64,000 nucleotides of DNA from Chamaesiphon sp. Its GTDB lineage: Bacteria > Cyanobacteriota > Cyanobacteriia > Cyanobacteriales > Chamaesiphonaceae. The stretch's first letter is position 1. Each line of letters opens with the position of its first letter. The DNA is taken from positions 64,001-128,000 of the forward strand of contig CBDFFH010000005.1 in NCBI GenBank assembly GCA_965246715.1, given 5' to 3'. The notes under the pieces are model-generated. The model saw only the letters and a list, made by a program, of their open reading frames with translations, was not told the origin of the DNA and did not search any database. The translations under genes were made by a program, and so were the position numbers. This document shows, piece by piece, positions 39,554-64,000 of the stretch.

Positions 39554-39563
39554 AGTCTGTGCC

Positions 39564-43580: not shown

Positions 43581-43928
43581 TTGGCTATGATAGTTACCCA
43601 ATTCTCTATTGAAACCGATCGAACCTCATCGTCCACACCTATCCTGGTAACACAACGCGCAGATCGGGTCTGGATTGCCAAATTATTAACTTGGGCAGGC
43701 TTTTCAGTTGAAGGCAATAGTCGCGAAGATGCTCTGTTTAAACTAGACCAACAAGTCAAAGCACAGCTAGCCGATGGTGAGATTGCCTACTTAGACTTGC
43801 TATTAGTACAAGCAAAAAACCCCTGGTTGGCGATCGCGGGGAAATACAAAGACGACCCTACTTGGGATGAATACCAAACAGCCATTGCCACAGCCCGCCA
43901 AGCATCCAATGAGAGCGAAGGCATTTGA
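43581..43928 (+). CDS. HicB-like antitoxin-fold protein (no adjacent toxin)
   Basis: VEGNSREDAL..L; C-terminal NPWLAIAGKYKDDPTWDEY; start uncertain. Confidence 0.6.
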   Translation: MAMIVTQFSIETDRTSSSTPILVTQRADRVWIAKLLTWAGFSVEGNSREDALFKLDQQVKAQLADGEIAYLDLLLVQAKNPWLAIAGKYKDDPTWDEYQTAIATARQASNESEGI

Positions 43929-43978
43929 CAGAACAGGAAAAGGCGATCGCTATATTTATCGATCGCCTTTCTAAATAT

Positions 43979-44224
43979 CTAACCCTTATTTTTGCGTAGA
44001 TGCTGCTTCTGAGCTAACTTTCGGCGTGATTTCCGCGTACCCTTCGCCGCCTTCTTCGCCTTATACTCAGCCTTCGTTTCCTTCCAAGCTTCCCGCGCCG
44101 CCGTCCCCATCAACAACCGAAATATTAGCGGTGCAAAAGCCTGAGCCGGAGGTGCCGTCGCACCCACAACCACCGCCGAAGCCGCAGCACCACCAGCCAA
44201 ACCAAATAATTGTCTACGATTCAC
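43979..44224 (-). CDS. Small Tat-signal basic protein
   Basis: MNRRQLFG twin-arginine signal, AQA cleavage site, K/R-rich tail; GGAGG RBS. Confidence 0.75.
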   Translation of the reverse strand: MNRRQLFGLAGGAAASAVVVGATAPPAQAFAPLIFRLLMGTAAREAWKETKAEYKAKKAAKGTRKSRRKLAQKQHLRKNKG

Positions 44225-44244
44225 AATCTTGCCTCCAGTAATAG

Positions 44245-44655
44245 TTAGAAGTATTTCGCCAGCACACCTTTCTTTCTTCCTCGCGCCATCGCCCGTTGCG
44301 GACGACTGCGATTGTCATTGGTAATTTCAAACCGTAAGTGTTTGGGATTGATGCTTCCCCGTTTCATCGGATGATGCCCGATATCATAGCCCTTGGGATT
44401 TTTGAACCGAGGGAAACCAGTCTTCCCCTTCCGCTGCCAGCGATTCAACTGACTTTGCAATGCACCGCGAATAAATTTGGGCTGCTTGGGGTTGATTAGT
44501 GCCCCGCGCATAAACAGTTGTCTGGCCTTTCCCCAGCCACGCGGAGATTTTGCTTCGGCTGGCTGCCCAGAAGCTAATAAAACCAACAGCACCAGCAGGG
44601 CTGCCATATATTTACCAAAACGATTCGCCACAGGCGACGCTACACGATCGAACAC
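44245..44655 (-). CDS. Secreted basic protein with HNH-like toxin motif
   Basis: Signal peptide ending AEA; PKFIRG..Q, NPKGYDIGH..LRFE...NRSR. Confidence 0.55.
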   Translation of the reverse strand: MFDRVASPVANRFGKYMAALLVLLVLLASGQPAEAKSPRGWGKARQLFMRGALINPKQPKFIRGALQSQLNRWQRKGKTGFPRFKNPKGYDIGHHPMKRGSINPKHLRFEITNDNRSRPQRAMARGRKKGVLAKYF

Positions 44656-44762
44656 GATTGAATCTCCATTACTTGTCTTACCAATTATTTATCGGAGTTC
44701 ATCTGGCAATTTTGGCAAAATTTGGAAAATTTATTTACCTTGTTCCAAAATCTCCGCCACAT

Positions 44763-44800
44763 ATCAAGACTCGATCGATTGGGGTCGATCGAGTCTTGAT
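44763..44800. terminator. 16-bp inverted repeat downstream of protease D
   Basis: atcaagactcgatcga-ttgggg-tcgatcgagtcttgat. Confidence 0.5.
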
Positions 44801-44889
44801 TAATCCTCCGCAGAGCGCGGACTTATAGCGTGTTAGGGTGACACTGGTGATAGCGATCGGTCAAATCGATCGCCATTGTCCAAACAGTT

Positions 44890-47800: not shown

Positions 47801-47958
47801 TGTGCCGCTACATCCTCCATTACAGCAACTAACCCCATATCTATCAATTCCTGCTGGGCATTCAGCACATCATTTTCTTCCCCATGAGGGCAAGTCAAAA
47901 GTGCCTGAATCAATTCCAAATAAGCCCGTAATCTTTGTTCGTCCATGAGTATCTCCAA
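44890..47958 (-). CDS. TPR-repeat CHAT-domain protease D
   Basis: 48-aa repeats; LIPH..LHQIPFAAL, LHSYHHA, FLSCCET, ATLWSVD, PVYWAAF. Confidence 0.92.
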   Translation of the reverse strand: MEILMDEQRLRAYLELIQALLTCPHGEENDVLNAQQELIDMGLVAVMEDVAAQMLGERQSNKARFLQDSATQLTRYLLGKSEQGAREFLHQLILAEMENEGQATVTIHNLMCNNLAQVDRSLGAAMGQFVADILAQHPQESESMAGMLGNICIYLQKFPYGKFLEVNEIAVAGYEIVLNLIRNNQPKRAQTFTNRGAAYQTLGRMGVDGVTNLRRAIADYDEAAEIRRATKLTRDLSSTLNNRGNTYLTLADMGVDGVTNLYLAIADYDEAAEIRRAAKLTRDLSSTLNNRGNAYSTLAGMGVDGVTNLRRAIADYDEAAEIRRAAKLTRDLSSILNNRGNAYLILAKMGVDGMTNLRSAIADYDEAAEIRSAAGLTRNLSSTLTNRGNAYLILAEMGVEPEANNNLAIESYRAALQFFNPNTLAADCLRTGRTLGNLGFKLGNWEISIEGYSLAIEAIEQSRAWSREESHREEVQSNAIEVYTNIVQAQIQLHRYPEALQYAERSRSKRLSDLMRVNDFYQKGEIPTDIKTKLDAYDALQRQIDAIYHKLDGNSQTLTLDTLRPSISEIEQQHVTALEAQQTTLWQELRRQDPIAAAGKRILPLEIADINKLIGKDTHTALLSFFSTPTDTFIFIARRDSQQQLQIAVHHCPDQGFDTFHNAILEQWIKPYYADKNYREWSKQITPFLQECSDRLSIDTLIAQHLDDTITDLILIPHLYLHQIPFAALPTNTKDGAKLLGDRFTIRYAPSCEILKICDDRPELNVNLNYGIIEGASLDVPYGIFQGEEIATLLNIPLAQRLCGTTEATIDNFKQLAQTVNILHSYHHASSNPNEPLKSSLALADGNITLAQLLVWQLTGLQEVFLSCCETAFGISQTTTDEVFTLASGFLCAGARTVIATLWSVDQLSAALMCIFYYEQRKRGLDRPRALQAAQQQLRQLSGATLDNVYGERLEACLEINREQLSRAHDVELTKGEKAAEASFERLQKVEDMTENLKYLCGQDRPFSDPVYWAAFTCQGLP
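46760..47380 (-). repeat. Intragenic 144-bp near-identical tandem repeats (about 4 units)
   Basis: MGVDGVTNLRRAIADYDEAAEIRRAAKLTRDLSSTLNNRGNAY. Confidence 0.9.
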
Positions 47959-47974
47959 TATTTTTAACGCAAAC

Positions 47975-48820
47975 CTAGTTAGATCGATGTTGCCGAAACC
48001 AAGCCGCCACCTTCAACGCCAGCGATTTGTCAAAGTCAACGCTTCCCGATCGCAGTTCCCCCTCTGCCTTAACTGATTCCACCTCATCCTCATCACTCAA
48101 AACCACCAGCTCCCGCTCTCGCACCTCTGACTGTTGTTGCAACTCCTGCAAATACACCTCCACCCGCCGATTTTGTAAATCTGGATTAGATTCCAGCAAA
48201 AATATTTGTTCCAAACTTGCCACAATCCCATTCAAAGCTCGATCGGCGAACTGTGCCTGTACCTCCTCTAGCAGTCGATCTTCACTATCCTCCACCACCG
48301 TCATCACCCGCTGAATCGTCCGCAAATAACTGGGCAAAGACTCCACCGACTGCTTCCGAAACTGCCGTACACTCAGAGCCAACGTATTCGAGGGATATTC
48401 ATAAACGAATCCCAGCAACTGCGCTCGATCGAGCATCGCCCCAAACCCCACCGCTACATAAGCCACCCGATCCTCCACCGCCGTCAACGGAATTTCCACA
48501 GGCACACCACGATCCAATAACACCGGACGGCATTCGATTTTACCTACACCCACTACTTCTAAATCGGCCACATCGATCGGTGTCGCCAAACTCGGTTGCC
48601 AACTATCACTCGCCGCCCAATTGGTGTCAATTCCTGCTTCCTGCAAAAAACTTTCCACCGCATAAACCGCCAGCGTATTCAGATAAACCTTTTCCGCCAA
48701 ATCCACATTCGGCATTCCCACCGCAAACGATCGCGCCTGAAGTTGCACCGCCGTGGGAATCGAGATTTCGATTACATTACTTGTCATCATATTTTTCCTG
48801 GGTAATACAAAATTGCTCAC
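47975..48820 (-). CDS. DUF1822 family protein (lacking the usual C-terminal region)
   Basis: AEKVYLNTLAVYAVESFL, SDSWQP, DVADLEV.GVGKIECRPV, EDRVAYVAV, AQLLGF. Confidence 0.85.
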   Translation of the reverse strand: MSNFVLPRKNMMTSNVIEISIPTAVQLQARSFAVGMPNVDLAEKVYLNTLAVYAVESFLQEAGIDTNWAASDSWQPSLATPIDVADLEVVGVGKIECRPVLLDRGVPVEIPLTAVEDRVAYVAVGFGAMLDRAQLLGFVYEYPSNTLALSVRQFRKQSVESLPSYLRTIQRVMTVVEDSEDRLLEEVQAQFADRALNGIVASLEQIFLLESNPDLQNRRVEVYLQELQQQSEVRERELVVLSDEDEVESVKAEGELRSGSVDFDKSLALKVAAWFRQHRSN

Positions 48821-48825
48821 AACAC

Positions 48826-50004
48826 CTAACCAAAAAACACGCTAACCATCTTGGCTAAAGGCTTCTGGCACTTCCGCACCCAAAAATCCGCCAACATCTC
48901 CGCCGTCAGCTTCTTGTAACCAAACCGCTCCTGTGCCAACTTAGCGATCGCCTCAAAATCCACAGGCGGATCGCTATAGATCCAGAGATGCTGCTGTGCC
49001 ACAAACTGCACCGTCACCTTGGGCATCTTGTTCTTTATTGGTGTCTGCAACACACAATTGGTATCTCGATCGATATCCTCCCGCACCATCGCCGATTGCT
49101 CGTCCGTCAACAAATTAGGCTCTAACAACAACGACTGGGCGCGAGGCACCACATGACGTTCATAAAAAGGGTAAAACTTGTGATATTTCATGCCGTATGC
49201 CGTGGCTAGATCTGTTAGATCGTCCGGTGGCCGTTTAAATCCCATCCGCCACAACACATCTCGCACCGTACAGGTTGGACAGTCAGCATGACTGAAATCC
49301 AACAACTCCGAACTGCCATTTTCTATCAACTCCAGCCACCGATTCTTCGTAACTGATAAATCTTGTGCCAGCATTTCTCTCAAATCTGAGGCTTGGGGTT
49401 GTTCCGCAAAATCTTGCCAATCTAACTGCTCGTCCAGCGATGAGAGTTGATCTCGCTTTTGCTTTCTAAAATAATTGCTGACTGTTGCTTGCACCGCATA
49501 GCGAAAATAGGTACGACAGCAACCCACAACACTAAATCCCGTCGGCGAAAACTTCGGCAAAGTGATTTGCATAAAGTACAAACAACTATCTTGGGCAAGA
49601 TCTTCGATCGTTACTCGATCCTTAATTCCCCACTGCCGAATCCAGTAATAGAGGAACTGGAGCTTATCCCCAGTCAGCAACGGAAACACCTGACCCTCCA
49701 GCCGTTGCTGGACGATTGGGGACGACGCAGCCAACAACTCCGTCAAGATCTGCTTGAACTGGGAGTCTTCAGAGGTCAGACTCGATCGACTTTCCAAACA
49801 ATCATACAAATGCTGCCAGATAGATGAGTGCGATCGAGTCTCTTTCAGAGACACTTCGTGAACGGACATAGGCGGCGAAACCTCTTGTTGTATTACCATA
49901 TATAGGCTAATCCTCCAATATATTAGGTGGCCAGCGCAGCAATGAATCTTAGCCATCACGCACCAGCCATTTAAGTAACAGCAAGATTTATCAAAAGTTG
50001 GCAA
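48826..50004 (-). CDS. Sigma-70/ECF-like protein with duplicated C-terminal HTH-like domain
   Basis: IEDLAQDSCLYF..KFSP..RTYFRY.V...V.NYFRKQKR..SSLDEQL; start uncertain (49899 or 49869 plausible). Confidence 0.72.
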   Translation of the reverse strand: MPTFDKSCCYLNGWCVMAKIHCCAGHLIYWRISLYMVIQQEVSPPMSVHEVSLKETRSHSSIWQHLYDCLESRSSLTSEDSQFKQILTELLAASSPIVQQRLEGQVFPLLTGDKLQFLYYWIRQWGIKDRVTIEDLAQDSCLYFMQITLPKFSPTGFSVVGCCRTYFRYAVQATVSNYFRKQKRDQLSSLDEQLDWQDFAEQPQASDLREMLAQDLSVTKNRWLELIENGSSELLDFSHADCPTCTVRDVLWRMGFKRPPDDLTDLATAYGMKYHKFYPFYERHVVPRAQSLLLEPNLLTDEQSAMVREDIDRDTNCVLQTPIKNKMPKVTVQFVAQQHLWIYSDPPVDFEAIAKLAQERFGYKKLTAEMLADFWVRKCQKPLAKMVSVFFG

Positions 50005-50509
50005 AAATCGTCAACTTTCTTCAAATCCTTGGCTAGAGGACTTTGTAGCTAGCTTAACCACCACACCAATTTGCCAACTCCAACTCAGAATAGCTATCTT
50101 CCAAGGTTGCCAAAGGACAAATAACATAATTAGGACATCGATCGATCGCCAAGCGGTTTGGGACGAGAATCGGATCTGTCGTCCCTGTGAAAATCACTTC
50201 CATCCACAGATACTGCCAGATAAATAGTTCGATCTGATTTGTAAATAGAGAACAAGACTGAGTAGTTGCCATAAATTTGTTGGTTCTATTTCCTTACCTA
50301 CACCTAGATATCGCAACCGTCGCTAATTTTTTGGCAAGAACATTAGGCTGTCAGACAATAAATTCCAGAGCTATTTCACCTCCAATCGCATTTGATATCT
50401 TAACGATCGAATCAAGCCAAAAGTGCCAAATTCCAAAGACTCTGGGCGATAGATCCTTATCGAGTTGTATGACAGGCTCGTGCAACATCAGTAGCTGAGG
50501 GCCGGATTT

Positions 50510-51610
50510 GTGATTGAGCGAAAATTGGCATTGAAAAAACTCGTTCGCGTAGCGTCCCCTTTGGGGAATCGACTCCAATCGATCGGGTCTGGATTGAACC
50601 GCCGTAAAGCGATCGGAATTATCGCCACCATCCTCGCTTTAACCGGAGCCACTGGCTGTGGTAAACAAGTCTCGATCGATGAATATCCCGCTGTAGCAGC
50701 CGAAAACTTCAACCCTAAACAACTCCCCATACTGCGAAAGCACATTCTCGCGATGTACTTTAGCCGTTACCTCGCTGGAGCTAATAACGACGAGCACAGT
50801 GTCCGCCGCCAGGTGCGCTACTATCGCACTCGCGGCATCAACACCCTAATTGTGGGCGTGTGGGGCAATGGCTGTGCGATGTATCAAAGCGAAGTTACCA
50901 AAAGGCTGCTCGGTCAATCTAGCTGTCCCAACACCTTCCCAGATCGGTGGCTGGATTGGACGATCGACGAAGCCAAGAAACAGGGAATGCAAGTTCACGC
51001 CTACTTCGAGCGCGGCATCAAGATCGATAATAGTAGCCTAATCTACAATCTCGCCGTCACCCGCAAATGGTTAATCCCAGGAGTCGATCGCACCTATCCC
51101 AAGATGGAACAGTATGTCTTCGATGTCGAACATCCCGAAGTAATCGCCCTGTTTAAAGGCGTGATGGCTGAATTTGTCAACAGATACCCGACGATCGATG
51201 CCGTGCAGTGGGACGACTTTCTCGCCTACTCTGTGAAGCTCCCAGGCATAAATCGCACTGCCAAACTGACCAAATTCTCGATCGATCTGTATCACATTAC
51301 CAAACGAGCTAATCCCAGAGTTAGCTTCGATCTGTGCCATCTCAACCCTGATTGGTCGAAACGGACATTATCAGCCGACTGGAAACGCTGGAAAATCGAT
51401 CGAGCGTTTGTCCAACTTTACAGCGAACCGACCTTCAGACAAGAACTAGCCTACGCCGAAAACAGTGCGGGAATTGCCATCACCGATAGACAGTTACACC
51501 GCCTACCAGCACTGCTCAAGAACCCCAAAATCAAAGGAATCTTCATTTTCCCCCTCACAGGCAATCCCCGCATGGCTGCGGCGAATCTACAGCTAGCCGC
51601 AGTCAAATAA
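50510..51610 (+). CDS. GHL10/DUF187-like glycoside hydrolase lipoprotein
   Basis: Lipobox ATGC; GINTLIVGVW.NG, EAKKQGMQVHAYFE, HPEV, RYPTIDAVQWDD; start uncertain. Confidence 0.8.
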   Translation: MIERKLALKKLVRVASPLGNRLQSIGSGLNRRKAIGIIATILALTGATGCGKQVSIDEYPAVAAENFNPKQLPILRKHILAMYFSRYLAGANNDEHSVRRQVRYYRTRGINTLIVGVWGNGCAMYQSEVTKRLLGQSSCPNTFPDRWLDWTIDEAKKQGMQVHAYFERGIKIDNSSLIYNLAVTRKWLIPGVDRTYPKMEQYVFDVEHPEVIALFKGVMAEFVNRYPTIDAVQWDDFLAYSVKLPGINRTAKLTKFSIDLYHITKRANPRVSFDLCHLNPDWSKRTLSADWKRWKIDRAFVQLYSEPTFRQELAYAENSAGIAITDRQLHRLPALLKNPKIKGIFIFPLTGNPRMAAANLQLAAVK

Positions 51611-51754
51611 ATGGCCCTTTTATTGCCACCAATCTTACCAATGACAAGCGGACTATCTCGATCGGGCGAAATGCTTCGATCTTATATTGTTGCAGCTAGT
51701 CTTTTACTAGTGTATGATTAGTATTTCAGCATTGAAGGAATTGGGTTAATTAAA

Positions 51755-52567
51755 ATGGCTACAGACAATAGAGGGGTGATGGTTTACCTGCCATCAGAAG
51801 TAGAAGTGAAGATGGTCGAGTATTGTACTCAGCACAACATCACCCGTAAAGACAAGCAAGGAAATATCGTCACATCATTAGGAAGTGGGATAGTTGCGTA
51901 CCTCAAAAGTCAGTTACTTGGTGACATACCTAGAGTGGTGAGTGACAGACCTACTACTGGATTGACCAGGGAAGAAGTAATAGATTTAATAGCAGAGTCG
52001 AGTACTGGTAACACACCAATCGTTGGCGTAGCCTCTCTTGCGGAGAATCGATCGCCCGATCCATTAGGTGCGGATGTTTTACACCGTCTAGAAACGATCG
52101 AACAACAGCTATCATCGCCTATAGGCATATCGAGAGATGAGGTAGAGCAACTAATTCAATCATCGGAACAGAGAGTGATGGAGGCTGTCCGTAGCCTACA
52201 AGGTGAACTGGCGAAAATTAAAGCCATTGACGAGCGAGTCAGCACTCCCCAGTCCTCAAGCTCCAGACACAGCCAAAAGCGGGCAAGCGAGGATGCTGCG
52301 ATTAACTCGCCAGCTACAGATACCGAATCAATTGGTGCTATACCTGGCAATAAGCCTCCGACTAAAGATATCAAAAGATGGCTAGAACCTTTGAAGGATA
52401 ATAAGTTCAGTGACATTATTCAGACTGCCGTCGCTGAGAAGTTGAGCAATCAGGAGATAGTCACCAGATTGTATGATTCGGGCTATGGGAAGAATAACAA
52501 CACCGAGCCATATCCCCCCAACCTCGCCAGTGCAATGAAGACGGCTCTTTTATTGCTGAATAATTAA
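51755..52567 (+). CDS. Hypothetical protein, possibly DNA-binding
   Basis: 270-aa ORF; RGVMVYLP RHH-like start; repeated G(L/I)(T/S)R(E/D)EV..LI. Confidence 0.65.
   Translation: MATDNRGVMVYLPSEVEVKMVEYCTQHNITRKDKQGNIVTSLGSGIVAYLKSQLLGDIPRVVSDRPTTGLTREEVIDLIAESSTGNTPIVGVASLAENRSPDPLGADVLHRLETIEQQLSSPIGISRDEVEQLIQSSEQRVMEAVRSLQGELAKIKAIDERVSTPQSSSSRHSQKRASEDAAINSPATDTESIGAIPGNKPPTKDIKRWLEPLKDNKFSDIIQTAVAEKLSNQEIVTRLYDSGYGKNNNTEPYPPNLASAMKTALLLLNN
52021..52050. repeat. Short dispersed repeat, copy 3, inside a CDS
   Basis: cgttggcgtagcctctcttgcggagaatcg, translated as VGVASLAENR. Confidence 0.7.
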
Positions 52568-53842
52568 GACAAATCTTGACAGATAAAATCTGCCCTTTCA
52601 TAAGAATTGCGGAAAATAGGTCAAACTACGACTCAGCAGCATCTTTCTTTAAAATGGATGTTTCTGCGGAAATCCATTCAGATGGAATCAATGCAGTACC
52701 ATTGCGCCAACGTTCCACTACAGCTTCTTCATACCAAGTTTCTGCAATATCAGCGTGTTCGGTGATAATTATTTGGAAGTTGGGCTGAAGTTCTTCCACA
52801 ACATCTCTTATCAGCTCAAACATGCGGACGACCGCCGCCCTATCTTCATCACCAAGATCTGTTGCAGACCGTTGTATATTTTGTTCTGCGGGGAAATATA
52901 CCTGCGATGGTTGATCCAAGAATAGAAAATGTGGAACTGGCCTAGACTTTTTGACAAACCACAAATGGAGAGCAAGATGAGCGATCAAATGGCAACCTAC
53001 CCAGTTAGCTCCACTACCCATTCGATCCATGCGGATAGGCCCACCATCGGTATCTGCGACTACTTGTAAATTTCGCAGATCCAATCGAAATGGATTGCCA
53101 CTATGCTCAAGCTCTAGTTGATTTGACCATATAGTCATATCTTTTGAGATAACAGATAAAATCGAGTCCAGACGCTCCTGAAGATTATCGTTACTTAGGT
53201 TTGCCGCTAGCTGTTTTATCTCAGATTGGAGTTTGGAGATCTCTGTTCTTAATTCAGATGAATCAGCAATCTGCGGGAGAGTTTCGAGAAATAAGCTAAT
53301 TCTTCCAATTACATAAGCCCTACGAGAAGAATTATGTCTTAGTTCCATTAATCTATCATCTGCATCTCGTAAGGCTTCAAGGACACTTCTATTCTCCCGC
53401 AACAGTCTCTTTGTATCAGTAATCTTCTGTTCTTGATCGATTATTAACATCTCTAGACCTGGAGTGTGCCTGATAACTTGGTCGAGTTGTTTTGATGCTG
53501 TTTGTAGCTCTACTTCTAGAGTGTTGAATGATGGAATATCTGTAGGCCGATCGCATAATGGACAGCAAGGTTGCTCTGCAACATTAAAAAGTTGAAGACT
53601 TGTAAGTCGAGAAACCTGCTCTCCAACTTCTTTTTCAAAACTGCCTTTATCGGAAAGTAGAATTTTCATACCCTCTAAATCATCCTTTTGCCGAGCAAGT
53701 TGCTCTCGGAGATCTGTGCGTTCATCATTTAGTCTTAAAAGTTCTGATTGATCGATACTCTGTTCGTAGCGAGTGAGCTGTTCTTCCGGTGAAGTCTTTA
53801 TCACTGTACTTAGTAATTCAATGGCCGCACCCCAAGAATCTG

Positions 53843-55257
53843 GGTTCTACCGAACTTACTATGCTAAATCAAGGATTGAAATGCCATGCTAGCAAACTTC
53901 TGATCTGAAAATTCTCAAAATTTCTAAACCCATATCCCATTCTTTTTATTAGCTTGAGTTTATTGTTAATTCCTTCGACGACTCCTTGAGTTGTTCTATT
54001 ATCAAAATAGGCAATTATTTCACCAATCCATCTTTTAATAGTTCCACAACTCTTGGGGAATTTCCCACAAGCATTCTTGAGCCAGTCACACAAGCTTATT
54101 AGCCCATTTCCCCAATCTGTTTTTGATTCAAATATATCTCTAAATAACTCTTTTGTTTTGTGCATTGCTGCTAATTCTGGAAAAACGTCTCCAATCTCTT
54201 TCAACTTCTCTTTTTGCAATTCATTCAAATCCGCTTCGTTTTTGAGTATTGCATATTTACTGTGAGTTAATGCTGCTAATTTCTTGTTCTTTTCATCTTT
54301 GTTCTTCACCCTCTCAGCCTCTCTTTTGATTTTAATTCTCTCTCGATCTAACTCTTCATTTATCTGTTTCATTACATGAAATCTGTCTCCAACCACTTCA
54401 GCATTTGGTATCAATTCATTTACCAGACTTTTGTATGATGAAAATAGATCGATACTTACTTCTGTAATTTGGTTCAAAACCTCCGAACCCCAAGACTTCA
54501 AGCACTCACCAATACATTCTTGAGTCCTTTTTGGTAAGATGGCTATTAACTCTCTTTTTTCTAGATCTACTAACACCGCACAATAGTTTTTTTGCCCTTT
54601 AACAAAGGCAATTTCATCAATTCCTAGTCTGGTTAAATTCTCTGGCTTTTTTTGCACTAGATTTACCCCAGCTTTTTTGATTATTGTCTCCACTTCTTGC
54701 TCACTTAATCCATTTCTTTTGGCAACACTTTTAATATCACTAGCTAGACTCTCTTCGACAATCTTCTGCTTCATTCGCTCGGTGAAATGACTTCTCTTTT
54801 TGATGAAATTTAATTCCTCACTGAATTTTCGACCACAACTCATACACTTGAATTGACGACGATTAATTTTAAGGTAAACATCATGTTCACCGAATGGTAG
54901 ATCTCTCACTGTTAATTGGTGATTCTCATGAAGTTTATTACTTTCAGTTCCACAATGAGGACACACTGCTTTTAATTGCTGATTTTCTAGATAAATAAAA
55001 TAACCGATTTCATCTAAGATCTTATAAGCAGTGACGGTCATTCCGTCGATATTAAGAATTTCATTAATGGTTTTTAGTTGCGATTTGGATGACATAATGC
55101 AATTCAAGCTTATTTGTTGCCAGAAATCAAGATCTTACTATTCTATAATAAAATCTGTCATTTATGCTGCACCAAGCTTCCATAACTCAAAATTATCAAT
55201 TTTGTCAATTAAACTTGATTCTTATCCACTACTTAGCATAGCAAGTTCGGTAGAGCC
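53843..55257 (-). mobile_element. ISL3-family element, apparently intact
   Basis: IRs GG(T/C)TCTACCGAACTT(A/G)CTATGCTAA; 8-bp TSD AGAATCTG at 53835-53842 and 55258-55265. Confidence 0.95.
53869..55107 (-). CDS. ISL3 transposase
   Basis: CPHCG..VRDLP..RRQFKC..C, LGIDE, VSIDL, DRFHV, TQGVVEGINNKLKLIKR.GYGFRNF. Confidence 0.95.
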   Translation of the reverse strand: MNCIMSSKSQLKTINEILNIDGMTVTAYKILDEIGYFIYLENQQLKAVCPHCGTESNKLHENHQLTVRDLPFGEHDVYLKINRRQFKCMSCGRKFSEELNFIKKRSHFTERMKQKIVEESLASDIKSVAKRNGLSEQEVETIIKKAGVNLVQKKPENLTRLGIDEIAFVKGQKNYCAVLVDLEKRELIAILPKRTQECIGECLKSWGSEVLNQITEVSIDLFSSYKSLVNELIPNAEVVGDRFHVMKQINEELDRERIKIKREAERVKNKDEKNKKLAALTHSKYAILKNEADLNELQKEKLKEIGDVFPELAAMHKTKELFRDIFESKTDWGNGLISLCDWLKNACGKFPKSCGTIKRWIGEIIAYFDNRTTQGVVEGINNKLKLIKRMGYGFRNFENFQIRSLLAWHFNP

Positions 55258-56018
55258 AGAATCTGGAGCTTCATCTAAAGCCAATAGTCCAACATCTCGC
55301 CCTTCTGAAAGCAGTGCAGATGCTTCACTAATTCCTCCACTTGCCATAGATTCAAGTCGAGCTAGTGCAAGTTCCTGTTTCTGCAATGAACGACGTAGTT
55401 CTCTAAGTCTTGCTTTCTCAGCCATATAGTTTTCATCTACTACTCCGAGAAAGTATGGCAACGTATCTTTGATTGCTTGTGCAGTCCAATTATCGCTTTG
55501 TTTATGAAATAGAAAACCAGGCTGGCTAATTTCATGTTGAGGCTGGAATGCGAAGATAAGCGCATGTCTGAGTGTTGTCGTTAGGGGAGGTCGGGTTTGT
55601 CCATCAGGAGGTTCATGAACACTGAGATCGATACCGACAATACCTTTCAATTGCTCAATCAGAGTTTCAATGTTAGTTGTAACAGAGAGCCGATCTGCGG
55701 GAGGAATGGTTATTGTTGAACCCACCATATAGTAAGCTCCTGAGTTGCTTACTTTTCCAGGATCTGGTGCGCGACGTGCAATGAAATACTCGGCAGAACC
55801 ATCAGTAAGTCGGAGTGCATACCAGCCAACACTATTTCTAATAACTCCTTCTGGGACAGCACATGATGAGCTGCCCAGGCAGTAATCAACTATGCCAATC
55901 AAAGCAGATTTTCCTGTTTTCGAGTCCCCTGTAATTATATTGATTGCACCAGGACGAAGTGACAACAGACGGCGTTCACCCTGCAATGAATACAGGATAA
56001 TATCAAGGATCTGAATAC

Positions 56019-56519
56019 TCAAGGAGCAACCCCCCAGAGAGCCATGATGGTTGAGTATTCACCGGAGGATGCAAACCATTTGCCCACGAACTTAGCCTTT
56101 TTCATACAATCATTAACTTCCTCTGAAGCCTGTGTCAAGAAACTGTTCATCGAACGCGGTCGTGTTGCCGCAAGGATTTGTGAGGAAGATAATTCAATTA
56201 ACTTACCATTTGCACCAAATAGTATACCTTCTTTGATCAGAGGTACCAAGGCTGTTGCTCGTTCCGCGAAGCGAACATGAGCCTGTGGATTTTGGACAAG
56301 CCAAGTAGCCATAGATGTTCTGGTTGTTCTCGGCAAACTTTCTCGCGTAGCCTTGTGTAGAGTCACAGGCATTGCAATGAATGTTAAAGGATAAGGAATG
56401 CCTCGTTCCGTGACACTGCTATATCCTTCACTACAAGACCAAAGCAGTGCGGCAAGAAACGCGGGATTAAGAAGTCGAGCTTGCTCGACGGATCTATCTG
56501 ACCATATAGGAGTACTCAT
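56019..56519 (-). CDS. ABC three-component system middle component (DdmB/LmuC-like)
   Basis: LLNPAFLA, P.TLHK.TRESLP, WF..G...TI..LWGVAP; 4-bp overlaps with both neighbours. Confidence 0.82.
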   Translation of the reverse strand: MSTPIWSDRSVEQARLLNPAFLAALLWSCSEGYSSVTERGIPYPLTFIAMPVTLHKATRESLPRTTRTSMATWLVQNPQAHVRFAERATALVPLIKEGILFGANGKLIELSSSQILAATRPRSMNSFLTQASEEVNDCMKKAKFVGKWFASSGEYSTIMALWGVAP

Positions 56520-57727
56520 GTGACCCCCTTCGGCTCAAGAATCTGCTGAAGATGCTGCATGAATTCAGGATGCCACCCAACTTTTAGCCGATCGGATAGC
56601 ATGTGAAATGACCCCCTGGTCATGCTTGGATGCTGGACTTGGGAACGAATTGGAAAAGAACTGTTTTCAACCCAAGCATAGATCTTTCGAGCAACTTCTC
56701 GCTTGATTTCCTCAGATTCGTTCTCACCAAGCTCATCAGATATGCGGTCAAACTGAAGCTCCCATTCCTCTCGTAGCAATTGCTCATACCTATCGAGTTC
56801 ACCAACTAACACCAGATCCTCTCGCACCCATCGGGATCGTTGTTCAAAGGCACGGTAGTAGTCCCGAATCGCGGCGAAGATTCGTTTATTGCCAATACCA
56901 ACCATTCTCACCTGATGGACAAAAACAGCATCTTCGTAAGCTGTCACGTCAACATCAGCACTCAAAATATCCTGATCTACAGGAAGAGCATCAGGATTAA
57001 ACTGCTCACGAAGAATATCAAATTCGCCTTCAATTTCGCTGCTAAGGATTGGAGATGAACTTGAGTCGTTCAATTGCCTAATCACTCGCTGATACCACCA
57101 ACCTTCGAGCCTTGTTAGAAAAGAGTCAAGATGGTTGCGTCGCACTGCGAGGCGAGCCTCTGAGCGAAGAGCGTCCTCAACACGAACAATATTTGGTGCA
57201 TTGGGAAATATGACAACAGAACCGATCAGTGCTGCTTGCTCATCTGGTTGAAGGCACCGAAATAGCTTATACGCTGGTTCATTCTTCTGGTTGCTAGAGG
57301 TATTTACTGTTGCTCGTAACCGATCGAGAGCCTTCACTTCATCGCGATTATCGATCGTCAGATAGCTAGCTGAAGAACCTTCACCAACTTTACTAGTCGT
57401 AATCAAATACAGCTTTGCATCTTTAGGAATTTTTTGATTTTCTCGACCCTCAATCCAAACTCGTAAACTCTTCCATATGTCAGGACTCGCATCAGTCAAG
57501 CTTGCTGCACGATCGCAGTGATGCTTCATCTGCAACAACTCGGATGCCGAGCCATCACGATCGAAGACAACATCATCAAGTGTCTCCAGGTAGGCTGCAA
57601 ATTCTTCATTTTGAGCAAGACGTTGAAGAGATGATAGCAACGCCCACCTCACTTGGTATAAGTACCCAAGTGCAGCATCGGTAGCGGAAAAATCAGTCTG
57701 TGTTTGTGAGTTTGAAGCCACTAGCAT
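56516..57727 (-). CDS. ABC three-component effector with Cap4/DUF4297-like nuclease (DdmA/LmuA-like)
   Basis: A.DAALGYLYQ, E.LDDV, LLQMKHH, LTD.S.DIWKSL.VW; C-terminal RGSFHMLSD.LKVGWHP. Confidence 0.85.
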   Translation of the reverse strand: MLVASNSQTQTDFSATDAALGYLYQVRWALLSSLQRLAQNEEFAAYLETLDDVVFDRDGSASELLQMKHHCDRAASLTDASPDIWKSLRVWIEGRENQKIPKDAKLYLITTSKVGEGSSASYLTIDNRDEVKALDRLRATVNTSSNQKNEPAYKLFRCLQPDEQAALIGSVVIFPNAPNIVRVEDALRSEARLAVRRNHLDSFLTRLEGWWYQRVIRQLNDSSSSPILSSEIEGEFDILREQFNPDALPVDQDILSADVDVTAYEDAVFVHQVRMVGIGNKRIFAAIRDYYRAFEQRSRWVREDLVLVGELDRYEQLLREEWELQFDRISDELGENESEEIKREVARKIYAWVENSSFPIRSQVQHPSMTRGSFHMLSDRLKVGWHPEFMQHLQQILEPKGVT

Positions 57728-57993: not shown

Positions 57994-58230
57994 TCACTGG
58001 AAATTTTCAGAGATTTTTTTTAACAAAGCCTTCCTCTCTCGCCCCAACTGAGACAAGAATTCTCTCATTACCTTCGATCGCAATCCATGTTTAAGCGAGT
58101 TTCGGGCGGCTTTTGCCTTTCCGACCGGGCTGGTTGGCCCCGTCGAGCGTTCCCACGGACGCTGCTGGTAGATCGATAACTTCATGCGAGAACTCTGCTG
58201 TTTCCGTGCTTCCAAATTCCACCTTGGCAT
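57994..58230 (-). CDS. Small basic protein with STGP..GK...NSLKHG motif (HGGxSTG-related)
   Basis: PWERSTGPTSPVGKAKAARNSLKHGLRS; overlaps the upstream ORF by 140 bp. Confidence 0.65.
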   Translation of the reverse strand: MPRWNLEARKQQSSRMKLSIYQQRPWERSTGPTSPVGKAKAARNSLKHGLRSKVMREFLSQLGRERKALLKKISENFQ

Positions 58231-58756
58231 AGGGTCGATCCTCCAATTGTTTCTGTAGTTCTTCAGTCTTCGTTACTAATTGATTCACCTGCTGCGCGAT
58301 CGCATTCTTGATGAACACCGTCTTCGGTTTAGGATTTTTGATGTCGTGAATTGTCTGTAACGTCTTCCGCGCCTGCTCCTGCGCTTTCATCGCCGCCTCT
58401 GAATAGGTCACAAACTGGTTGCTATTGGTTGTCAGAGTAGCCATCTGCATATATCGATTAAATGCCGCGTTGAGGATAGCCACCTGCCCATAGAGCAATT
58501 CAGTCACCGCCATAGCTTCATCGGTCATCAATGCTGTTGTTTGAGCCTCGATCGCTTCCTGAATCTGTAAAGTCTGTTCGGTGCCAGTCTGCTTTTCAGA
58601 CCCATGAATCAACAGATTGAGGGTATGTGCCGCCCCAAAGCTGGGATCTGCAACTCCCAGCATCTGAAGATCCAAGAGAACCTGACCTTTTTCGTTACAG
58701 GGCAGAACTCCAAACTTGTCAATATATTGCTGGGCTAATTTATCTTTCATGTTCAT
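58091..58756 (-). CDS. Hypothetical mobile-element protein
   Basis: ELLYGQVAILNAAF, AMKAQEQARKTLQTI.DIKNPK..FIK; GAGGAG RBS; co-oriented with the polymerase gene. Confidence 0.7.
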   Translation of the reverse strand: MNMKDKLAQQYIDKFGVLPCNEKGQVLLDLQMLGVADPSFGAAHTLNLLIHGSEKQTGTEQTLQIQEAIEAQTTALMTDEAMAVTELLYGQVAILNAAFNRYMQMATLTTNSNQFVTYSEAAMKAQEQARKTLQTIHDIKNPKPKTVFIKNAIAQQVNQLVTKTEELQKQLEDRPYAKVEFGSTETAEFSHEVIDLPAASVGTLDGANQPGRKGKSRPKLA

Positions 58757-58767
58757 CTCCTCGATGA

Positions 58768-60765
58768 TTAATGGAATGGTGTTTTGAGCTGAATTGGGGA
58801 AGATTGAGGCATAACCACTGTCGTCTTTTCGATCCCCAGAATAGATCGATATGCTGTATCTAGTAGACCGACATAGTGCTCCGCCCAGTATGGCTCGGTA
58901 GTAGTTTCTAGGGGATAACTGGCAAGCACTTTACCCGTTTTGGAATGGCAACGCTTACCTTCCGTAAGCCAGTAGCTCACACGATCTCCTGGCTTGCCAA
59001 TGCCCAGTTCTACCAAATTCTTCTCCGCAGAGCCGATTTTCCGATTGATAGTCAGATCGGCTACATCGATCCGGCGATCGATTAATAACGACCGAGTCTG
59101 GTGGTAATATTCATCAGCCGCTTGGGGCGATTCAATAAAATAGAGCCGCAGGAATTCGATCGGGAATTTATTCTCCAAGGGGTAACGATTCCGCTTTCTG
59201 AATAGTCCCTTAACCGTAGTTTTACCACTGGGATGAACGATCACATAGCTCTTAGCTTTGGGTGCATATAAACCGCAATCAGTTAGCTCTAGATCGATGT
59301 TGATCCCAGTAGGCAACGACCCAGAAACAAGCTCCTTAACTGTCTCTGGGTCATTATGACTAAATAACACCCCGTCGGTATCAATCTCGATCACTACGCC
59401 ACCGCAACTAGTTACCACTTCAACCATCAGATCCAAGATCTTCCGCCCGTAGGCGGTCACTAGAGCCGCCGCTTCGTAATCATTGAAAGTATAGAAACCA
59501 GTCCCCATAAACCCATATGAGCCGTTAATCAGAATCTTCAGCGATTTCTCTTGAAATGCTGCCGATTTGTCCCCAGATTTAGCCAATGCTTTGAGTTTTA
59601 ACCGTGCATCAACCATGTAAGCCAGTGCCCCCAGAAACTTATTCCCGTTATCTTTGCGACTACAGATCCCATATCTGAGCATGATCGAAGGATAGAGACT
59701 GGATACATCGATTTTGGCAACTTGCTGGTGTAGCCCTGGTGCCACTAGTTCGACCTTCCCACCATCATATTTAAGCGGCTCATCCGATTGAGGATTCAGC
59801 CGAGGTAATAATTTCTCGTGAATCTTCTGAGCTTTGAGTGCTGGCGAGGCGATCGCAATTTGCTGGAATGACAGCGCAGGCACATAAGCCAATTGATAGT
59901 ACACGACTGGTAACAGAAATTCAGCGAGTAGTTGCGTATCATCGAGATCGAATTTCAGATAATTCTCGATCGTCTCAGTATCGCCCGATTCCCAGCACTC
60001 GCGAATCTGGTTGACAGATAGTTCTAATCGTCTGTCATCTCTTAGCCCCAGTGCAATAACACTAGATTTGAGGTCATATCGATCGAGTCTTGCAGCTTGC
60101 TTATCCCAAATAGCGATCTGTTGGTAGGTATCGAGAATGTTAACACCACTCCAATAAATCGGAGTAAATTCGATTGGCTTACCATTCACAGTTGAAGAAG
60201 TGATCCGGCTGGTTTTATTACCCTTGCGGAACAGTTGAGAGATATTATGAACCCGACAGCGATCGGCTAAAAAGGGCAAATCGAAGTTAATCAGGTTATG
60301 ACCGATCAGGCATTCTGGTTGATGTTGCTTGAGGTGCTTGATCGTTCGAGCAAGCAGCGTCTTCTCATCTGGGTCTTTCAGGATAGTTATCTCTCCTTGA
60401 TTGTTAAGCAACCCAACCATTAATACTCGATCTGTTTTGGGATTTAACCCAGTCGTTTCGATATCAATGTAAATCTTAGTCAATTCCTCATAGGGTTTGA
60501 GTTTTACGGATGGCTGCCACTGGGGAATAAGTGTCTGGGGTTGATAATCGAGGGACAACCGATCGAGGTCAACTTCGACGCGCTCGCTAGTAATAGTGAC
60601 AGCATTCCGAGGATTGGGATGTAAAATCTCAACCACTCGATCCCGATTGATTATTTTCAAGTTTCCATCATCATCGGCGATAACTATTCTGACACCATGT
60701 ACCTTCAAAACCTCCCTGCTCAAGCCCTTAGCACTAGTAACGATCGATCCTACTACAATGTTCAT
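58768..60765 (-). CDS. Family B DNA polymerase with 3'-5' exonuclease
   Basis: ExoI DIETTG, ExoII GHNLINFDLPFL, ExoIII YLKFD; motif A DVSSLYPS, motif B KILINGSYG, motif C IDTDG. Confidence 0.92.
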   Translation of the reverse strand: MNIVVGSIVTSAKGLSREVLKVHGVRIVIADDDGNLKIINRDRVVEILHPNPRNAVTITSERVEVDLDRLSLDYQPQTLIPQWQPSVKLKPYEELTKIYIDIETTGLNPKTDRVLMVGLLNNQGEITILKDPDEKTLLARTIKHLKQHQPECLIGHNLINFDLPFLADRCRVHNISQLFRKGNKTSRITSSTVNGKPIEFTPIYWSGVNILDTYQQIAIWDKQAARLDRYDLKSSVIALGLRDDRRLELSVNQIRECWESGDTETIENYLKFDLDDTQLLAEFLLPVVYYQLAYVPALSFQQIAIASPALKAQKIHEKLLPRLNPQSDEPLKYDGGKVELVAPGLHQQVAKIDVSSLYPSIMLRYGICSRKDNGNKFLGALAYMVDARLKLKALAKSGDKSAAFQEKSLKILINGSYGFMGTGFYTFNDYEAAALVTAYGRKILDLMVEVVTSCGGVVIEIDTDGVLFSHNDPETVKELVSGSLPTGINIDLELTDCGLYAPKAKSYVIVHPSGKTTVKGLFRKRNRYPLENKFPIEFLRLYFIESPQAADEYYHQTRSLLIDRRIDVADLTINRKIGSAEKNLVELGIGKPGDRVSYWLTEGKRCHSKTGKVLASYPLETTTEPYWAEHYVGLLDTAYRSILGIEKTTVVMPQSSPIQLKTPFH

Positions 60766-60826
60766 TTAATCCTCCAGTTCAATTGCTCCGTCGTAGTTTG
60801 CATCTCATTCAATCCGCGTAATTAGC

Positions 60827-63559
60827 TCAAAAGTCTTCCTCTGTAGCTGGTGGAATAATGTCGATATCAATCTCAGCCAACAGATCATCTTGTTGCGATT
60901 GAGAAATTCGAGAATCTTTAGTAACTTTAGTAACAGGAACACTTAAATCTTTGCTGCACAAAGGTTTAAGACTGTTACTAGAGCAAGAATTAGCTAGTAA
61001 CTGGTTAGTAACAATTGCTGATGGCTGATGGCTACAACCTTTGACCTGTGCGGATTCAACGTTGTTACTAGACCAAGTAGCAGTATCCAAACCGTTATCT
61101 TGTAGCGATTCTGGAATATTCTGCGATGCTGTTGTTACTAAGCCGTTACTAGATGATTCATTTTCTAGTAACAGTGTTTTTCTTTGCGCTATTGACGTTT
61201 CAGACTTTTTGTTACTAGAGTTACTATGGTTTTCTAGAATTTCGATTTTGTAATCCGAGGATTGTCTTCTTGATTCATCATTTTCACGCGCATATCCTAG
61301 TTCAACTACTTTAAGCATGAAAGCCCGAATATCTTTGGCAGATGGTTTAGATTTGCCCGACCACCAATGTGTAACCATCCGAGTTGTTACCCACCCCTTC
61401 CCCCCAAAACGATTGATAAACTTCAGAATTCGAGCATCAGCGGGATCTGTTGTTGGATTAGAACCTGTCAGTGCTAACACCTTTTCGGTTTCTAGTAACA
61501 AACACCGACCCAATTCGATCGCGTGGTACATAGTGCTTGCTGACACTTCTCGATCAGGCTGTTTATTGTCCACCGCTGCCAACAACAAATGTAGAGCTAG
61601 TGCCAATCTTGCTACCCGATCCTTTGCCTTACCATAGATGCTTTCTAAGAATGTGCCGCTTTGATCGATCGTGAGATCGACCATATGGTTATACCAATCA
61701 GACCATAATTTTTGAGCCTTTGAGCTAGCTGTAAATGTTTGAGAGCTAAAGCCGTCAATAGTTGCATAAATCTTGGATAAAGCGGTGTACAGTAACCCGT
61801 CAGGATTGGGATCGTGAGAATAAGTTGCTGTTGTTGGTAAGTTGAAAAATACGAGTCTCGCCCACAGACCATCTTCCTTGTTGTCATCCTGCTCGAATAT
61901 TTTGGAGAGAGTCGTGTACTGGGTTGTTCCGACCAGAGATATCGCCGTTTTCTCGATGTGAATTCTCGGAGAACCTTTTCGTGTTACCTTCAGCTCATTC
62001 CCGTCGTACAAACTTAGCATTCGAGATCGATTATTAGCGGTTCCATATTTCTCAAAATCAGTAAACCCTTTAAGTTCATCTATCTTGATCAATAAGCAGT
62101 GTGATTTTTGGAACTGGCCGATATAGGCAAGAGATTCATATGTGTAGTCATCAACATAAAACTCTCGACATGCTGGTGAGTTGGGCTTGTCACCTAAATC
62201 TTCTTGTTTTTGACGTTTTTGCCGTTCGTATTCAGCTAATTCGCGCTCATACGCATCTACAGCTATGGCATATTCTTCATTCGCACCTTTTTGCAGTGCA
62301 GTGAGCGGCGATGTTATTGTTTTTAAGACTTCACTTTTGCCGCTGTTGGATGTACCAACTATTCCCACCCAGAGAATGGGTTTACCCCTAGTTTCCCTGA
62401 CATTTAGGGCGATCTCTACCTTAGACAGAGACAATACAACAGCTAATAAAGGTGCGACATATACCAGTGCGGGCAATGACCAGCGGATTGCTTCAGCTTC
62501 GATTAATCCTTTGAGTACATCGGGTAACGCCGATGCGGGATCGTATTCACTCTTTGTCAATAATCGGCTCAGGTCTTCGGATGCTTGTGAAACCACCTCT
62601 AGCCGATACCCTTGGTTAATCGCCTTAGTTTTGGCAGAATGATAAACTGCTGGTGGAGGACACCCCCCGTGACAGATAAAACCGCCCGTATCGCGATCGA
62701 TGTGAAGAGAATCATTACTTTCGCCATCGTGCGCGGGACACTTACACGTTATCCACCCTTGTCTGCCATCCTCCCGATAGCCCTCCAGATAAGGCGCGAA
62801 AGATCGAATGTCCGTTGGTGATGAATCGCTAGCTTCTATTTCTCTGATGGACTTGGTAGCCCATCGATCGAGATCGAGATCTGGCAACACTCGATCGAAT
62901 TCAGCGAGAGAATAACGGACATCGTTAAGCTGTAACAGTTCACAGGGAACGCGATCGAAGTTTTGAGTTTCAATGTTCCAAGAGAGATGGTCGAAACATG
63001 GTAATCTCATCAACTGAGCTGGATCGGCTAAGCTATCATCATCACAGTTCGAGTATTGAATCCACTGCCGCTGATAAGTGGCTAATCGATCGATTCTGAT
63101 AATTTCAGATGCCCAATAAGCGTGCAGCGATTTTCTAGTTTTAACAACTGCGGTAGGTTTTCCAAATTCAGCAGTTATTCGATCGATCTCCCGTTGTTGA
63201 TCTTCAAATGAGGCTTGATCGCTCTCATGAAAAAGTGTGGAACCATGGGTGATTTGGGAATTCTTATCACCGCCGTGGTGGGCGGCAAAATAGACCCCAT
63301 AACCTTGCTGGTTCAAAGATTTAAGGTATCCCCAACCATCTGGGATGACCACATGTCGATCCCGTCGCTGCTGAGAGAACTCGCCATTTTCTAAATTGAT
63401 GTAGCCTCGAACAACCGATATCTTAATCTCACCTGCTTGATTGGTGTATGTCATTCCCCGTGTCTCTAGTTCTAGCAGGGGACTATTCTTGGGTGGTAGG
63501 CAGCGAATGTAGACCCGATCTGAATGCCCGATTGCCTGAAGGAAATTAACGACATTCAT
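60827..63559 (-). CDS. Primase-like + Zn finger + DUF3987/YfjI ATPase replication protein
   Basis: LFHESD, KSLHAYW, DPAQLMRLP (RepB/AEP-like); CPAH..FICHGGC; VGTSNSGKS, IDEL, DGLWARL; ATG at 63559 coupled to the upstream stop. Confidence 0.85.
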   Translation of the reverse strand: MNVVNFLQAIGHSDRVYIRCLPPKNSPLLELETRGMTYTNQAGEIKISVVRGYINLENGEFSQQRRDRHVVIPDGWGYLKSLNQQGYGVYFAAHHGGDKNSQITHGSTLFHESDQASFEDQQREIDRITAEFGKPTAVVKTRKSLHAYWASEIIRIDRLATYQRQWIQYSNCDDDSLADPAQLMRLPCFDHLSWNIETQNFDRVPCELLQLNDVRYSLAEFDRVLPDLDLDRWATKSIREIEASDSSPTDIRSFAPYLEGYREDGRQGWITCKCPAHDGESNDSLHIDRDTGGFICHGGCPPPAVYHSAKTKAINQGYRLEVVSQASEDLSRLLTKSEYDPASALPDVLKGLIEAEAIRWSLPALVYVAPLLAVVLSLSKVEIALNVRETRGKPILWVGIVGTSNSGKSEVLKTITSPLTALQKGANEEYAIAVDAYERELAEYERQKRQKQEDLGDKPNSPACREFYVDDYTYESLAYIGQFQKSHCLLIKIDELKGFTDFEKYGTANNRSRMLSLYDGNELKVTRKGSPRIHIEKTAISLVGTTQYTTLSKIFEQDDNKEDGLWARLVFFNLPTTATYSHDPNPDGLLYTALSKIYATIDGFSSQTFTASSKAQKLWSDWYNHMVDLTIDQSGTFLESIYGKAKDRVARLALALHLLLAAVDNKQPDREVSASTMYHAIELGRCLLLETEKVLALTGSNPTTDPADARILKFINRFGGKGWVTTRMVTHWWSGKSKPSAKDIRAFMLKVVELGYARENDESRRQSSDYKIEILENHSNSSNKKSETSIAQRKTLLLENESSSNGLVTTASQNIPESLQDNGLDTATWSSNNVESAQVKGCSHQPSAIVTNQLLANSCSSNSLKPLCSKDLSVPVTKVTKDSRISQSQQDDLLAEIDIDIIPPATEEDF
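60919..61226. repeat. Cluster of TAGTAAC/GTTACTA heptamers (iteron-like)
   Basis: Eleven exact copies counted: 60919, 60928, 60974, 60995, 61006, 61064, 61134, 61145, 61166, 61211, 61220. Confidence 0.82.
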
Positions 63560-63750
63560 TAATTGACCTCCTCCCAGAGCGCACAAAACATACAACGCCC
63601 AATACCATAACCATCAAACTCGATCGGCTGATTGTGACAATCTTCGCAAACTGATGAAACGTATCTGATATGAGTTTGAAACGTTATGAGATCATTTTGA
63701 ATACTCGAAACTCGCACGTCGTTAAAAGACGCGCCAATACTGTCTGGCAT
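63559..63750 (-). CDS. Small putative zinc-finger protein
   Basis: CEDC..CMFC; AGGAG RBS; TAATG coupling to the replicase. Confidence 0.55.
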   Translation of the reverse strand: MPDSIGASFNDVRVSSIQNDLITFQTHIRYVSSVCEDCHNQPIEFDGYGIGRCMFCALWEEVN

Positions 63751-64000
63751 GGAGTGCTCCTGTTGATTGAAGATTACAGAGCATCCAAAGGTTGTGTTAA
63801 GATCGAACTAATATTTTCAAAAGCCGATCTAGTTCCAACCCCATTGGATACTAGATACATAACCCTTAACCTCGATAGGTTCGGGGTTATTCGCTATTTG
63901 GCTTTTGGAAGAGTAGATAAGTACTCCTCTATAAGAGCTTGATGTTCGGGTAGATCCTTCCCATTAATTAAATAATGGGATAGGAGAGTCCAATTCCAAA

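Follow-up and report, generated by a model that had tools for sequence, protein, structure and literature searches.

Replication genes and their products

We analyzed a 64,000-nucleotide stretch of a Chamaesiphon sp. genome (hereafter the window; C5:64001-128000 of the 6.1-Mb genome, C5 being contig CBDFFH010000005.1), in which a set of replication genes lies within an element integrated at a tRNA-Val gene. Five open reading frames (ORFs) were confirmed on the minus strand of the window, at 57994..63750. In reading order they are a 63-aa CxxC ORF (63559..63750), a 910-aa primase-helicase (60827..63559), a 665-aa family-B DNA polymerase of the G3 group (PolB; 58768..60765), a 221-aa helical ORF (58091..58756) and a 78-aa basic ORF (57994..58230). 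Translation of the primase-helicase begins at ATG 63559; this codon overlaps the stop codon of the 63-aa ORF (TAATG, preceded by GGAGG) and gives the length of 910 aa. PolB lies 61 nt after the primase-helicase gene and the 221-aa ORF 11 nt after PolB, and the 221-aa and 78-aa ORFs overlap by 140 nt in different frames. A preliminary description of this DNA had called the five ORFs a coupled run; all of them are present, but true coupling is confined to the TAATG junction. The 63-aa ORF is weakly conserved: 154 loci gave one tblastn match (E 0.006), and of 13 loci inspected two have comparable CxxC ORFs upstream of the primase. A promoter scan 5' of the operon stayed at chance level (7 vs 10.2). 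The genome has one copy each of PolB and this primase, and the closest genus-named homologues of both replication proteins are from Chamaesiphon.

The primase-helicase comprises an archaeo-eukaryotic primase (AEP) domain, a Zn finger, a DUF3987 MCM-like helicase (Pfam E 1e-47), a winged helix and a low-complexity tail. Its AEP motifs read ExD, SLH, D and R, and the residues E, D, H, D and R, the motif IV arginine included, are invariant in 49 sequences. By motifs I-III, the motif IV arginine and the motif II histidine, together with the RepB' and S-2L AEP fold matches given below, the primase fits the PrimPol-PV1 AEP supergroup (all3500-like). The helicase part carries Walker A (GTSNSGKS) and Walker B (DE). 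An AlphaFold model covering 775 residues, with the tail left off, had a mean pLDDT of 87, and Foldseek ranked the S-2L AEP domain first for it, then many MCM chains, with RepB' further down. By fold, the protein is thus predicted to join an AEP primase to an MCM-like DUF3987 helicase with a winged helix. DUF3987 has been tied to MCM before (PMC4889955), one DUF3987 protein (AgaPH) is described as a 5'-3' helicase that binds its AEP (PMC11724360), and AEP families on integrated elements are documented (PMC5862659). The primase domain is exchangeable among relatives, being RepB-like here and Prim-Pol in L003 and L012.

Pfam finds both the exonuclease and the polymerase domain in PolB, and Exo I, II and III, motifs A, B and C (IEIDTDG) and KxY are all intact. 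The ratio of nonsynonymous to synonymous substitutions (dN/dS) is ~0.10 against the enzyme of L003 (dN 0.17, dS 1.79), and dS is saturated against that of L019; on this comparison PolB is under purifying selection. PolB matched the TTDG polymerase of pSE-12228-03, which we take to be a pipolin polymerase (piPolB), only marginally (33 bits). Separately, in P0113, encoded on a phage-like contig (L088:825-3728), motif B of PolB is interrupted by a long intein-like insertion (C start, GN end).

The glutamate in motif C (ExDTDG) is the mark of the G3 group, of which Nostoc and Salinibacter phage enzymes are named members (PMC7544198). PolB has it, as do 107 of 133 ingroup sequences. In an IQ-TREE phylogeny of 38 sequences, with Pol II-like, T4-like and haloarchaeal outgroups (B9/B10 and HelPrimPolB references were not among them), PolB was nested between the Nostoc and Salinibacter phage G3 references with an ultrafast bootstrap of 100. 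A FastTree run kept every third unfused representative and dropped eight duplicate loci. The preliminary description had looked to phylogeny for the identity of the polymerase, and by its sequence PolB belongs to the described G3 group, apart from pipolin and casposon enzymes. G3 is reported to be the second commonest bacterial PolB group and kin to the catalytic half of eukaryotic Pol epsilon (PMC7544198, PMC12926913), and to be experimentally uncharacterized, with intact sites and a clamp motif (PMC12926913). The element's enzyme shares the ExDTDG motif C and the intact exonuclease and polymerase sites with this group, and may share the clamp motif, which its tail resembles. Its nearest named phage or plasmid relatives are the PolBs of cyanobacterial plasmids and Nostoc phages, at 32-42% identity. 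Those of Nostoc cyanophages A-1 and N-1 and of large cyanobacterial plasmids, described in PMC4916379, form a separate clade in the tree.

The tail of PolB reads QLKTPF; relatives have QLKLEL or QLEIPF, and plasmid relatives QLSLF. The tail may be a hexameric clamp motif. A complex prediction for the tail (residues 630-665) with the host DnaN scored 0.02.

These features bear on whether the element is a self-synthesizing one of the pipolin or casposon type. Like pipolins, it is integrative, encodes a PolB and carries defense cargo (PMC11551731). However, piPolB is described as primer-independent and lacks the first motif C aspartate, whereas the element has a conventional PolB with both aspartates (DTDG), placed in G3, and a dedicated primase-helicase. 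Casposons use Cas1 as integrase; here a tyrosine integrase and direct repeats are found, and the sole Cas1 match of the genome is on another contig (C34). The pipolin or casposon type is refuted by these observations and retains a negligible probability, as the preliminary description had anticipated in setting both classes aside.

A heptamer array in the helicase gene

Directly after the winged-helix codons, in the 3' end of the helicase gene, lies a candidate origin (60919..61226) made of 11 copies of TAGTAAC, five on the plus and six on the minus strand, with pairs spaced 9 bp at both ends. The expectation is 0.05 copies per 320 bp, and the next-best 320-bp stretch of the genome holds three. 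We counted as an array any heptamer with at least 7 copies and at least 3 per strand. Arrays so defined occur in 19 of 23 element linkers (the exceptions are L005, L012, L031 and L065) and in 0 of 7 regions upstream of PolBs without the helicase. The genome background was 7 of 4000 windows, which were HIP1-masked since the cyanobacterial HIP1 repeat likely inflates the unmasked background.

Among relatives the heptamers are element-specific, and many arrays open and close with oppositely oriented pairs 8-9 bp apart. The heptamer tracks the recognition segment of the winged helix (partial r 0.21, permutation p 0.014, n=19 of 22, three fragments excluded), a correlation weakened by the choice of the segment after the data had been seen and by the relatedness of the sequences. 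The helicase core of L019 is 64% identical, yet its recognition segment and heptamer are different, and L012 and L030, at 29-32% identity, have the same final histidine and GTAAC core. In the pathogenicity islands of Staphylococcus aureus (SaPIs), the winged helix of Rep is described as binding 6-12 opposed iterons right behind rep (PMC9371898). We consider the TAGTAAC array the likely replication origin of the element.

Element ends, sister islands and a proposed mode of replication

The element spans 46 kb between tRNA-Val repeats. Its distal attachment (att) site is a 51-bp copy of the 3' part of tRNA-Val(GAC) at 21047..21097 on the minus strand, with a 100% match to C5:131002-131052. The preliminary description had sought an integrase and an intact tRNA-Val beyond 64 kb, and both are there. 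The tyrosine integrase (384 aa, C5:129709-130863) lies ~2 kb past the end of the window; the tRNA-Val(GAC) (C5:131006-131079) is intact and forms the proximal att site. A 376-aa ORF (C5:128516-129646) likewise lies beyond the window. An 88-aa excisionase-like ORF (C5:127894-128160, minus strand) has its 3' part inside, at 63894..64000; its nearest Pfam-bearing Atlas cluster is Excisionase at 0.89, a lead only. For contigs of four runs matched to the integrase end, no att junction was found among the joints and loose ends listed; contigs likely break at a 51-bp repeat. In one of these runs (X1, L001:1-8000), contigs have a depth of ~8 in the element, and the host side reaches 27-47 with differing letters, suggesting that strains lacking the element co-occur. 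Runs X3 and X4, from another study, contain near-identical pieces. No RNA run carrying the element was listed among 15 runs.

In G410, a second genome of the genus, the same tRNA is occupied by a 39.7-kb island, and the flank is 95% identical. Identity between island and element is 80% for the integrase, 73% for the excisionase-like ORF, 74% for the 221-aa ORF and 85% for the 78-aa ORF, and both small ORFs are backbone genes. G410 also carries a ~11.3-kb PolB element between repeats, at a tRNA read from the sequence as Thr. The tRNA sites of relatives include tRNA-Pro, -Val, -Phe, -Cys and -Thr.

We profiled the neighborhoods of related PolBs, after dropping six duplicate loci (some duplicates persist in the distant group). 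The division into close (PolB at least 47% identical, n=38) and distant loci (n=53) used a cut-off set after viewing the data, among kin that are not independent, which weakens the following comparison. A primase-helicase is adjacent or fused to PolB in 20 of the 28 close loci with enough upstream DNA, and of the 15 with 5 kb or more upstream, 11 have an integrase. Clamp or loader genes occur in 0/38 close loci and in 23 distant ones, and an integrase match in 0/21 distant loci with 5 kb upstream. IMG/VR contributed three loci, none of them a small element. On large cyanobacterial plasmids and similar contigs (L017, L018, L043, L047, L052 and L056), a G3 PolB is found with its own dnaN, dnaX and holA, often with ssb, a B-family polymerase hybridized with bacterial clamp machinery.

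PolB is also recurrently fused to primase-helicases. Among the 150 best representatives of PolB, 32 are at least 1200 aa long, and 28 of the 30 that were scanned have a primase- or helicase-family domain (24 helicase-type, four more primase-related, two neither). The helicase-type fusions involve DUF3987 (12), DUF5906 (6), AAA_25 (4), DUF927 (1) and DUF3631 (1). Full primase-DUF3987-PolB fusions were found in 4 of 90 relatives of this primase's N-terminus; three activities fused in one protein were known earlier from phage gp55 (PMC4889955). One fusion, P0212 (1698 aa), joins Prim-Pol, PriCT-2, DUF3987, Dam methylase and PolB, with the methyltransferase in the linker region.

We interpret the module, with good though not complete confidence, as the primase-helicase, heptamer origin and own G3 PolB of a tRNA-integrated element that likely borrows the clamp, single-stranded DNA-binding protein (SSB) and ligase of the host. 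The earlier proposal is supported in that the element is integrated, has a primase-helicase of its own and carries a PolB of the nucleic-acid-primed type. The element would be excised as a circle by the integrase and the excisionase-like protein. By analogy with SaPI Rep and AgaPH, the winged helix would bind the heptamers, the helicase would load itself, and unwinding would proceed 5'-3'. The primase-helicase would then prime at an origin within its own gene, and PolB may extend the primers as the element's replicase, probably using the host clamp via its tail. The preliminary description had gone further and called the operon self-sufficient. This is not supported: genes for a clamp, a loader or SSB are absent from the element (a genome search finds host copies elsewhere only), and the C-terminal tail of PolB resembles a clamp motif. 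Replication likely depends on the clamp, SSB and ligase of the host.

Several findings weigh against this interpretation. The clamp motif is degenerate, a loose pattern being matched by 50 of 94 tails, and the centre of the array is not AT-rich (0.50-0.55), unlike SaPI origins. Eight of the 28 close loci have no adjacent helicase match; they include phage-like contigs (several, as judged from their ORFs), an IS-cut gene, an integrase locus without primase, and short contigs. PolB-less helicase genes also end in an array (four of six tested), so the array belongs to the helicase and not to PolB. Between the excisionase-like gene and the 221-aa ORF, the G410 island has a single DUF927 protein of 1107 aa and lacks PolB, and in L145 a DUF3987 protein is followed directly by the 221-aa ORF. 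PolB is therefore not required for the persistence of such elements. The backbone takes different replication cassettes, the PolB cassette being optional and swappable.

These PolB-less sister elements, found at the identical site and within the genus, are also what favors the main rival. In it, PolB is an accessory for gap filling, repair or Pol III backup, and replication follows the SaPI mode, driven by the element's primase-helicase together with Pol III of the host. The distribution points the same way: DUF3987 matches occur in 13/39 genomes of the family and PolB profile matches in 9/39 (10/401 in the phylum). Repeated in-frame fusion to several unrelated helicase families and the intact proofreading motifs argue for the contrary, and relatives in plasmid replication clusters with dnaN, dnaX and holA fit a replicase better than a repair enzyme. 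We therefore regard an accessory PolB as unlikely, though it is the strongest competitor of the replicase interpretation.

Cargo, transfer and related systems

The variable cargo (22519..52567) includes, by Pfam, four CHAT-TPR genes, two DUF1822 genes, an RES/Xre pair and a DUF6932/HTH pair, which by sequence look toxin-antitoxin-like, as well as Uma2 and GHL10. A 27-kb block of it (~24800-51950; the four CHAT-TPR genes, two beside DUF1822) is missing in the G410 island, where the flanks join directly (blastn). An ORF of 136 aa with a signal-like start (44245-44655) had no family match; its look is presumably that of a GHH nuclease. The defense cargo noted earlier was confirmed as a Lamassu/ABC-3C operon on the minus strand (52626..57727; PADLOC, and Pfam CTD7/MC3/DUF3732/DDE_Tnp_ISL3), with LmuA at 56516-57727, LmuC at 56019-56519 and LmuB in two halves (55222-56022 and 52626-53804) split by an ISL3 transposase (53869-55107). 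The G410 island (L132-L133, G410 C3:503061-517561) has a DruE-like helicase, DrmMI/type IIG methylase and DpdE/DrmD-like SNF2 helicase as its defense genes.

The genome is rich in such elements. A tandem second element (14979-21046) begins directly past the distal att site. It has an integrase (19793-20950), a 363-aa ORF, an excisionase-like stretch and a primase-helicase of 1037 aa (DUF3854/DUF927), and the 3' end of this last gene carries a heptamer array of its own, with nine copies of GTATCAC. About ten more matches to the same integrase family lie on contigs C2, C5, C9, C27, C36, C37 and C46, and several of them share a motif between tRNA and integrase.

We also considered that the operon is a remnant of a decayed prophage or an integrated plasmid fragment. 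Close PolB relatives in phage-like contigs (L033, L035, L038 and L088), distant ones on large plasmids and the IS-broken LmuB are consistent with decay. Against it stand the intact state of both att sites, of the integrase and of every replication ORF, and the recurrence of the compact layout in many loci. Pfam scanning of 34 element ORFs gave no match to capsid, portal, terminase, relaxase or type IV secretion system families, in line with the earlier statement that capsid and conjugation genes are absent, and no partition genes were found in the same ORFs. The 11-kb relative and the conserved ends in common with G410 largely refute a remnant, which we consider very improbable.

The two small ORFs behind PolB gave few leads. 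The 78-aa ORF had no match in Pfam, NCBIfam or PHROGs; we had presumed an HGGxSTG-type label for it, for which NCBIfam gave no match. The 221-aa ORF has 106 homologues and is also found behind PolB-less helicases (74-80%). Its predicted model found no match in a fold search, with 0 viral fold matches at E 0.001 (BFVD). As a candidate terminase small subunit (TerS), the 221-aa protein returned nothing meaningful from Pfam, PHROGs, NCBIfam, Atlas or BFVD.

A satellite lifestyle like that of phage-inducible chromosomal islands (PICIs) would have the element replicate on infection by a helper phage and enter phage particles, its packaging redirected by the 78/221-aa pair or a TerS; PolB would allow it to replicate while the phage shuts down replication of the host. 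The order integrase, excisionase, primase-helicase and origin is that of SaPIs, related G3 PolBs occur in Nostoc phages, an 11.3-kb version exists, and TerS stands behind PolB in 3/38 close loci. TerS in these few relatives hints at phage packaging as a transfer route. This copy, however, is 46 kb long and has no TerS or capsid gene: the genome has no match to a relative's TerS, small ORFs had no PHROG match, and the 221-aa model has no viral fold match. We give the satellite explanation a low probability, somewhat below that of an accessory PolB; it concerns lifestyle and is compatible with the chemistry proposed here.

The proposed replication by a dedicated primase-helicase and PolB nevertheless builds on a known plan, and the module is the primase, Rep and origin arrangement of SaPIs and tycheposons with an added polymerase. 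The likeness to SaPIs and PICIs (PMC9371898) extends to the integrase, the excisionase-like gene (its assignment being a lead only), the primase fused to a winged-helix helicase and the opposed short repeats that follow. The element differs in having its repeats within the helicase frame and around a centre that is not AT-rich, PolB behind the repeats and a length of 46 kb; PICI packaging or interference genes (TerS or capsid) are absent from this copy. Tycheposons of Prochlorococcus (bioRxiv 10.1101/2020.12.28.424599) are described with an inward tRNA-targeting tyrosine integrase, an optional adjacent replication module and cargo, all shared here, and with TerS in a minority of the cargo tycheposons. 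Membership in that class rests on lineage-specific integrase profiles and hallmark profiles, and the likeness drawn here is one of described layout; the host lineage is different and our element is larger. Descriptions of virion-encapsidated integrative mobile elements (VEIMEs) serve as a further comparison for replication modules.

Other systems share single components. HelPrimPolB, or gp55, of Lactococcus phage 1706 unites primase, helicase and PolB in one chain (PMC4889955, PMC7544198), as do relatives of the element. They are described as proteins of phages, their helicase being of the SF3 type and their motif C divergent, whereas the element has a G3 PolB and an MCM-like DUF3987 helicase in separate genes. 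The AgaPP/AgaPH element (PMC11724360) is likewise tRNA-integrated, with integrase, AEP, DUF3987 helicase and defense cargo, but there a BT4734-like PrimPol serves as the polymerase, and the passages on that element's polymerase do not mention PolB. Two plasmids with related PolBs that we inspected have their own clamp and loader genes, unlike the element. The passages on G3 in PMC7544198 and PMC12926913 do not tie the group to integrative elements or to primase-helicase operons or fusions. Among the papers listed by our literature search, none was, judging by its listing, on G3 PolB integrative elements of cyanobacteria, although the supplementary tables of the same two papers might list such PolBs. 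The proposal of a separate new element class is weakened nonetheless: an element with its own replication genes stands, but its PolB falls inside G3 and its backbone follows the layout of SaPIs and tycheposons.

It is possible, and we suggest it tentatively, that cyanobacterial G3 PolBs serve as replicases for a widespread class of tRNA-integrated elements that is as yet undescribed. The entire replisome of these elements would be one exchangeable cassette, often one gene, in which the in-linker origin and a winged-helix/heptamer code give element-specific origins and replication is independent of host Pol III, for example during phage takeover. SaPIs, tycheposons and the all-in-one replicases of phages already show the parts and the logic, and this limits how surprising the element is. 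Still, G3 gains a concrete job and a minimal test system, which consists of a single primase-helicase and a single polymerase plus a candidate origin of 310 bp. Nature also supplies single-chain fusions and, at the same tRNA, a control that lacks PolB. The variation in heptamers and winged helices provides cyanobacterial replicons with a range of origins that are possibly orthogonal.

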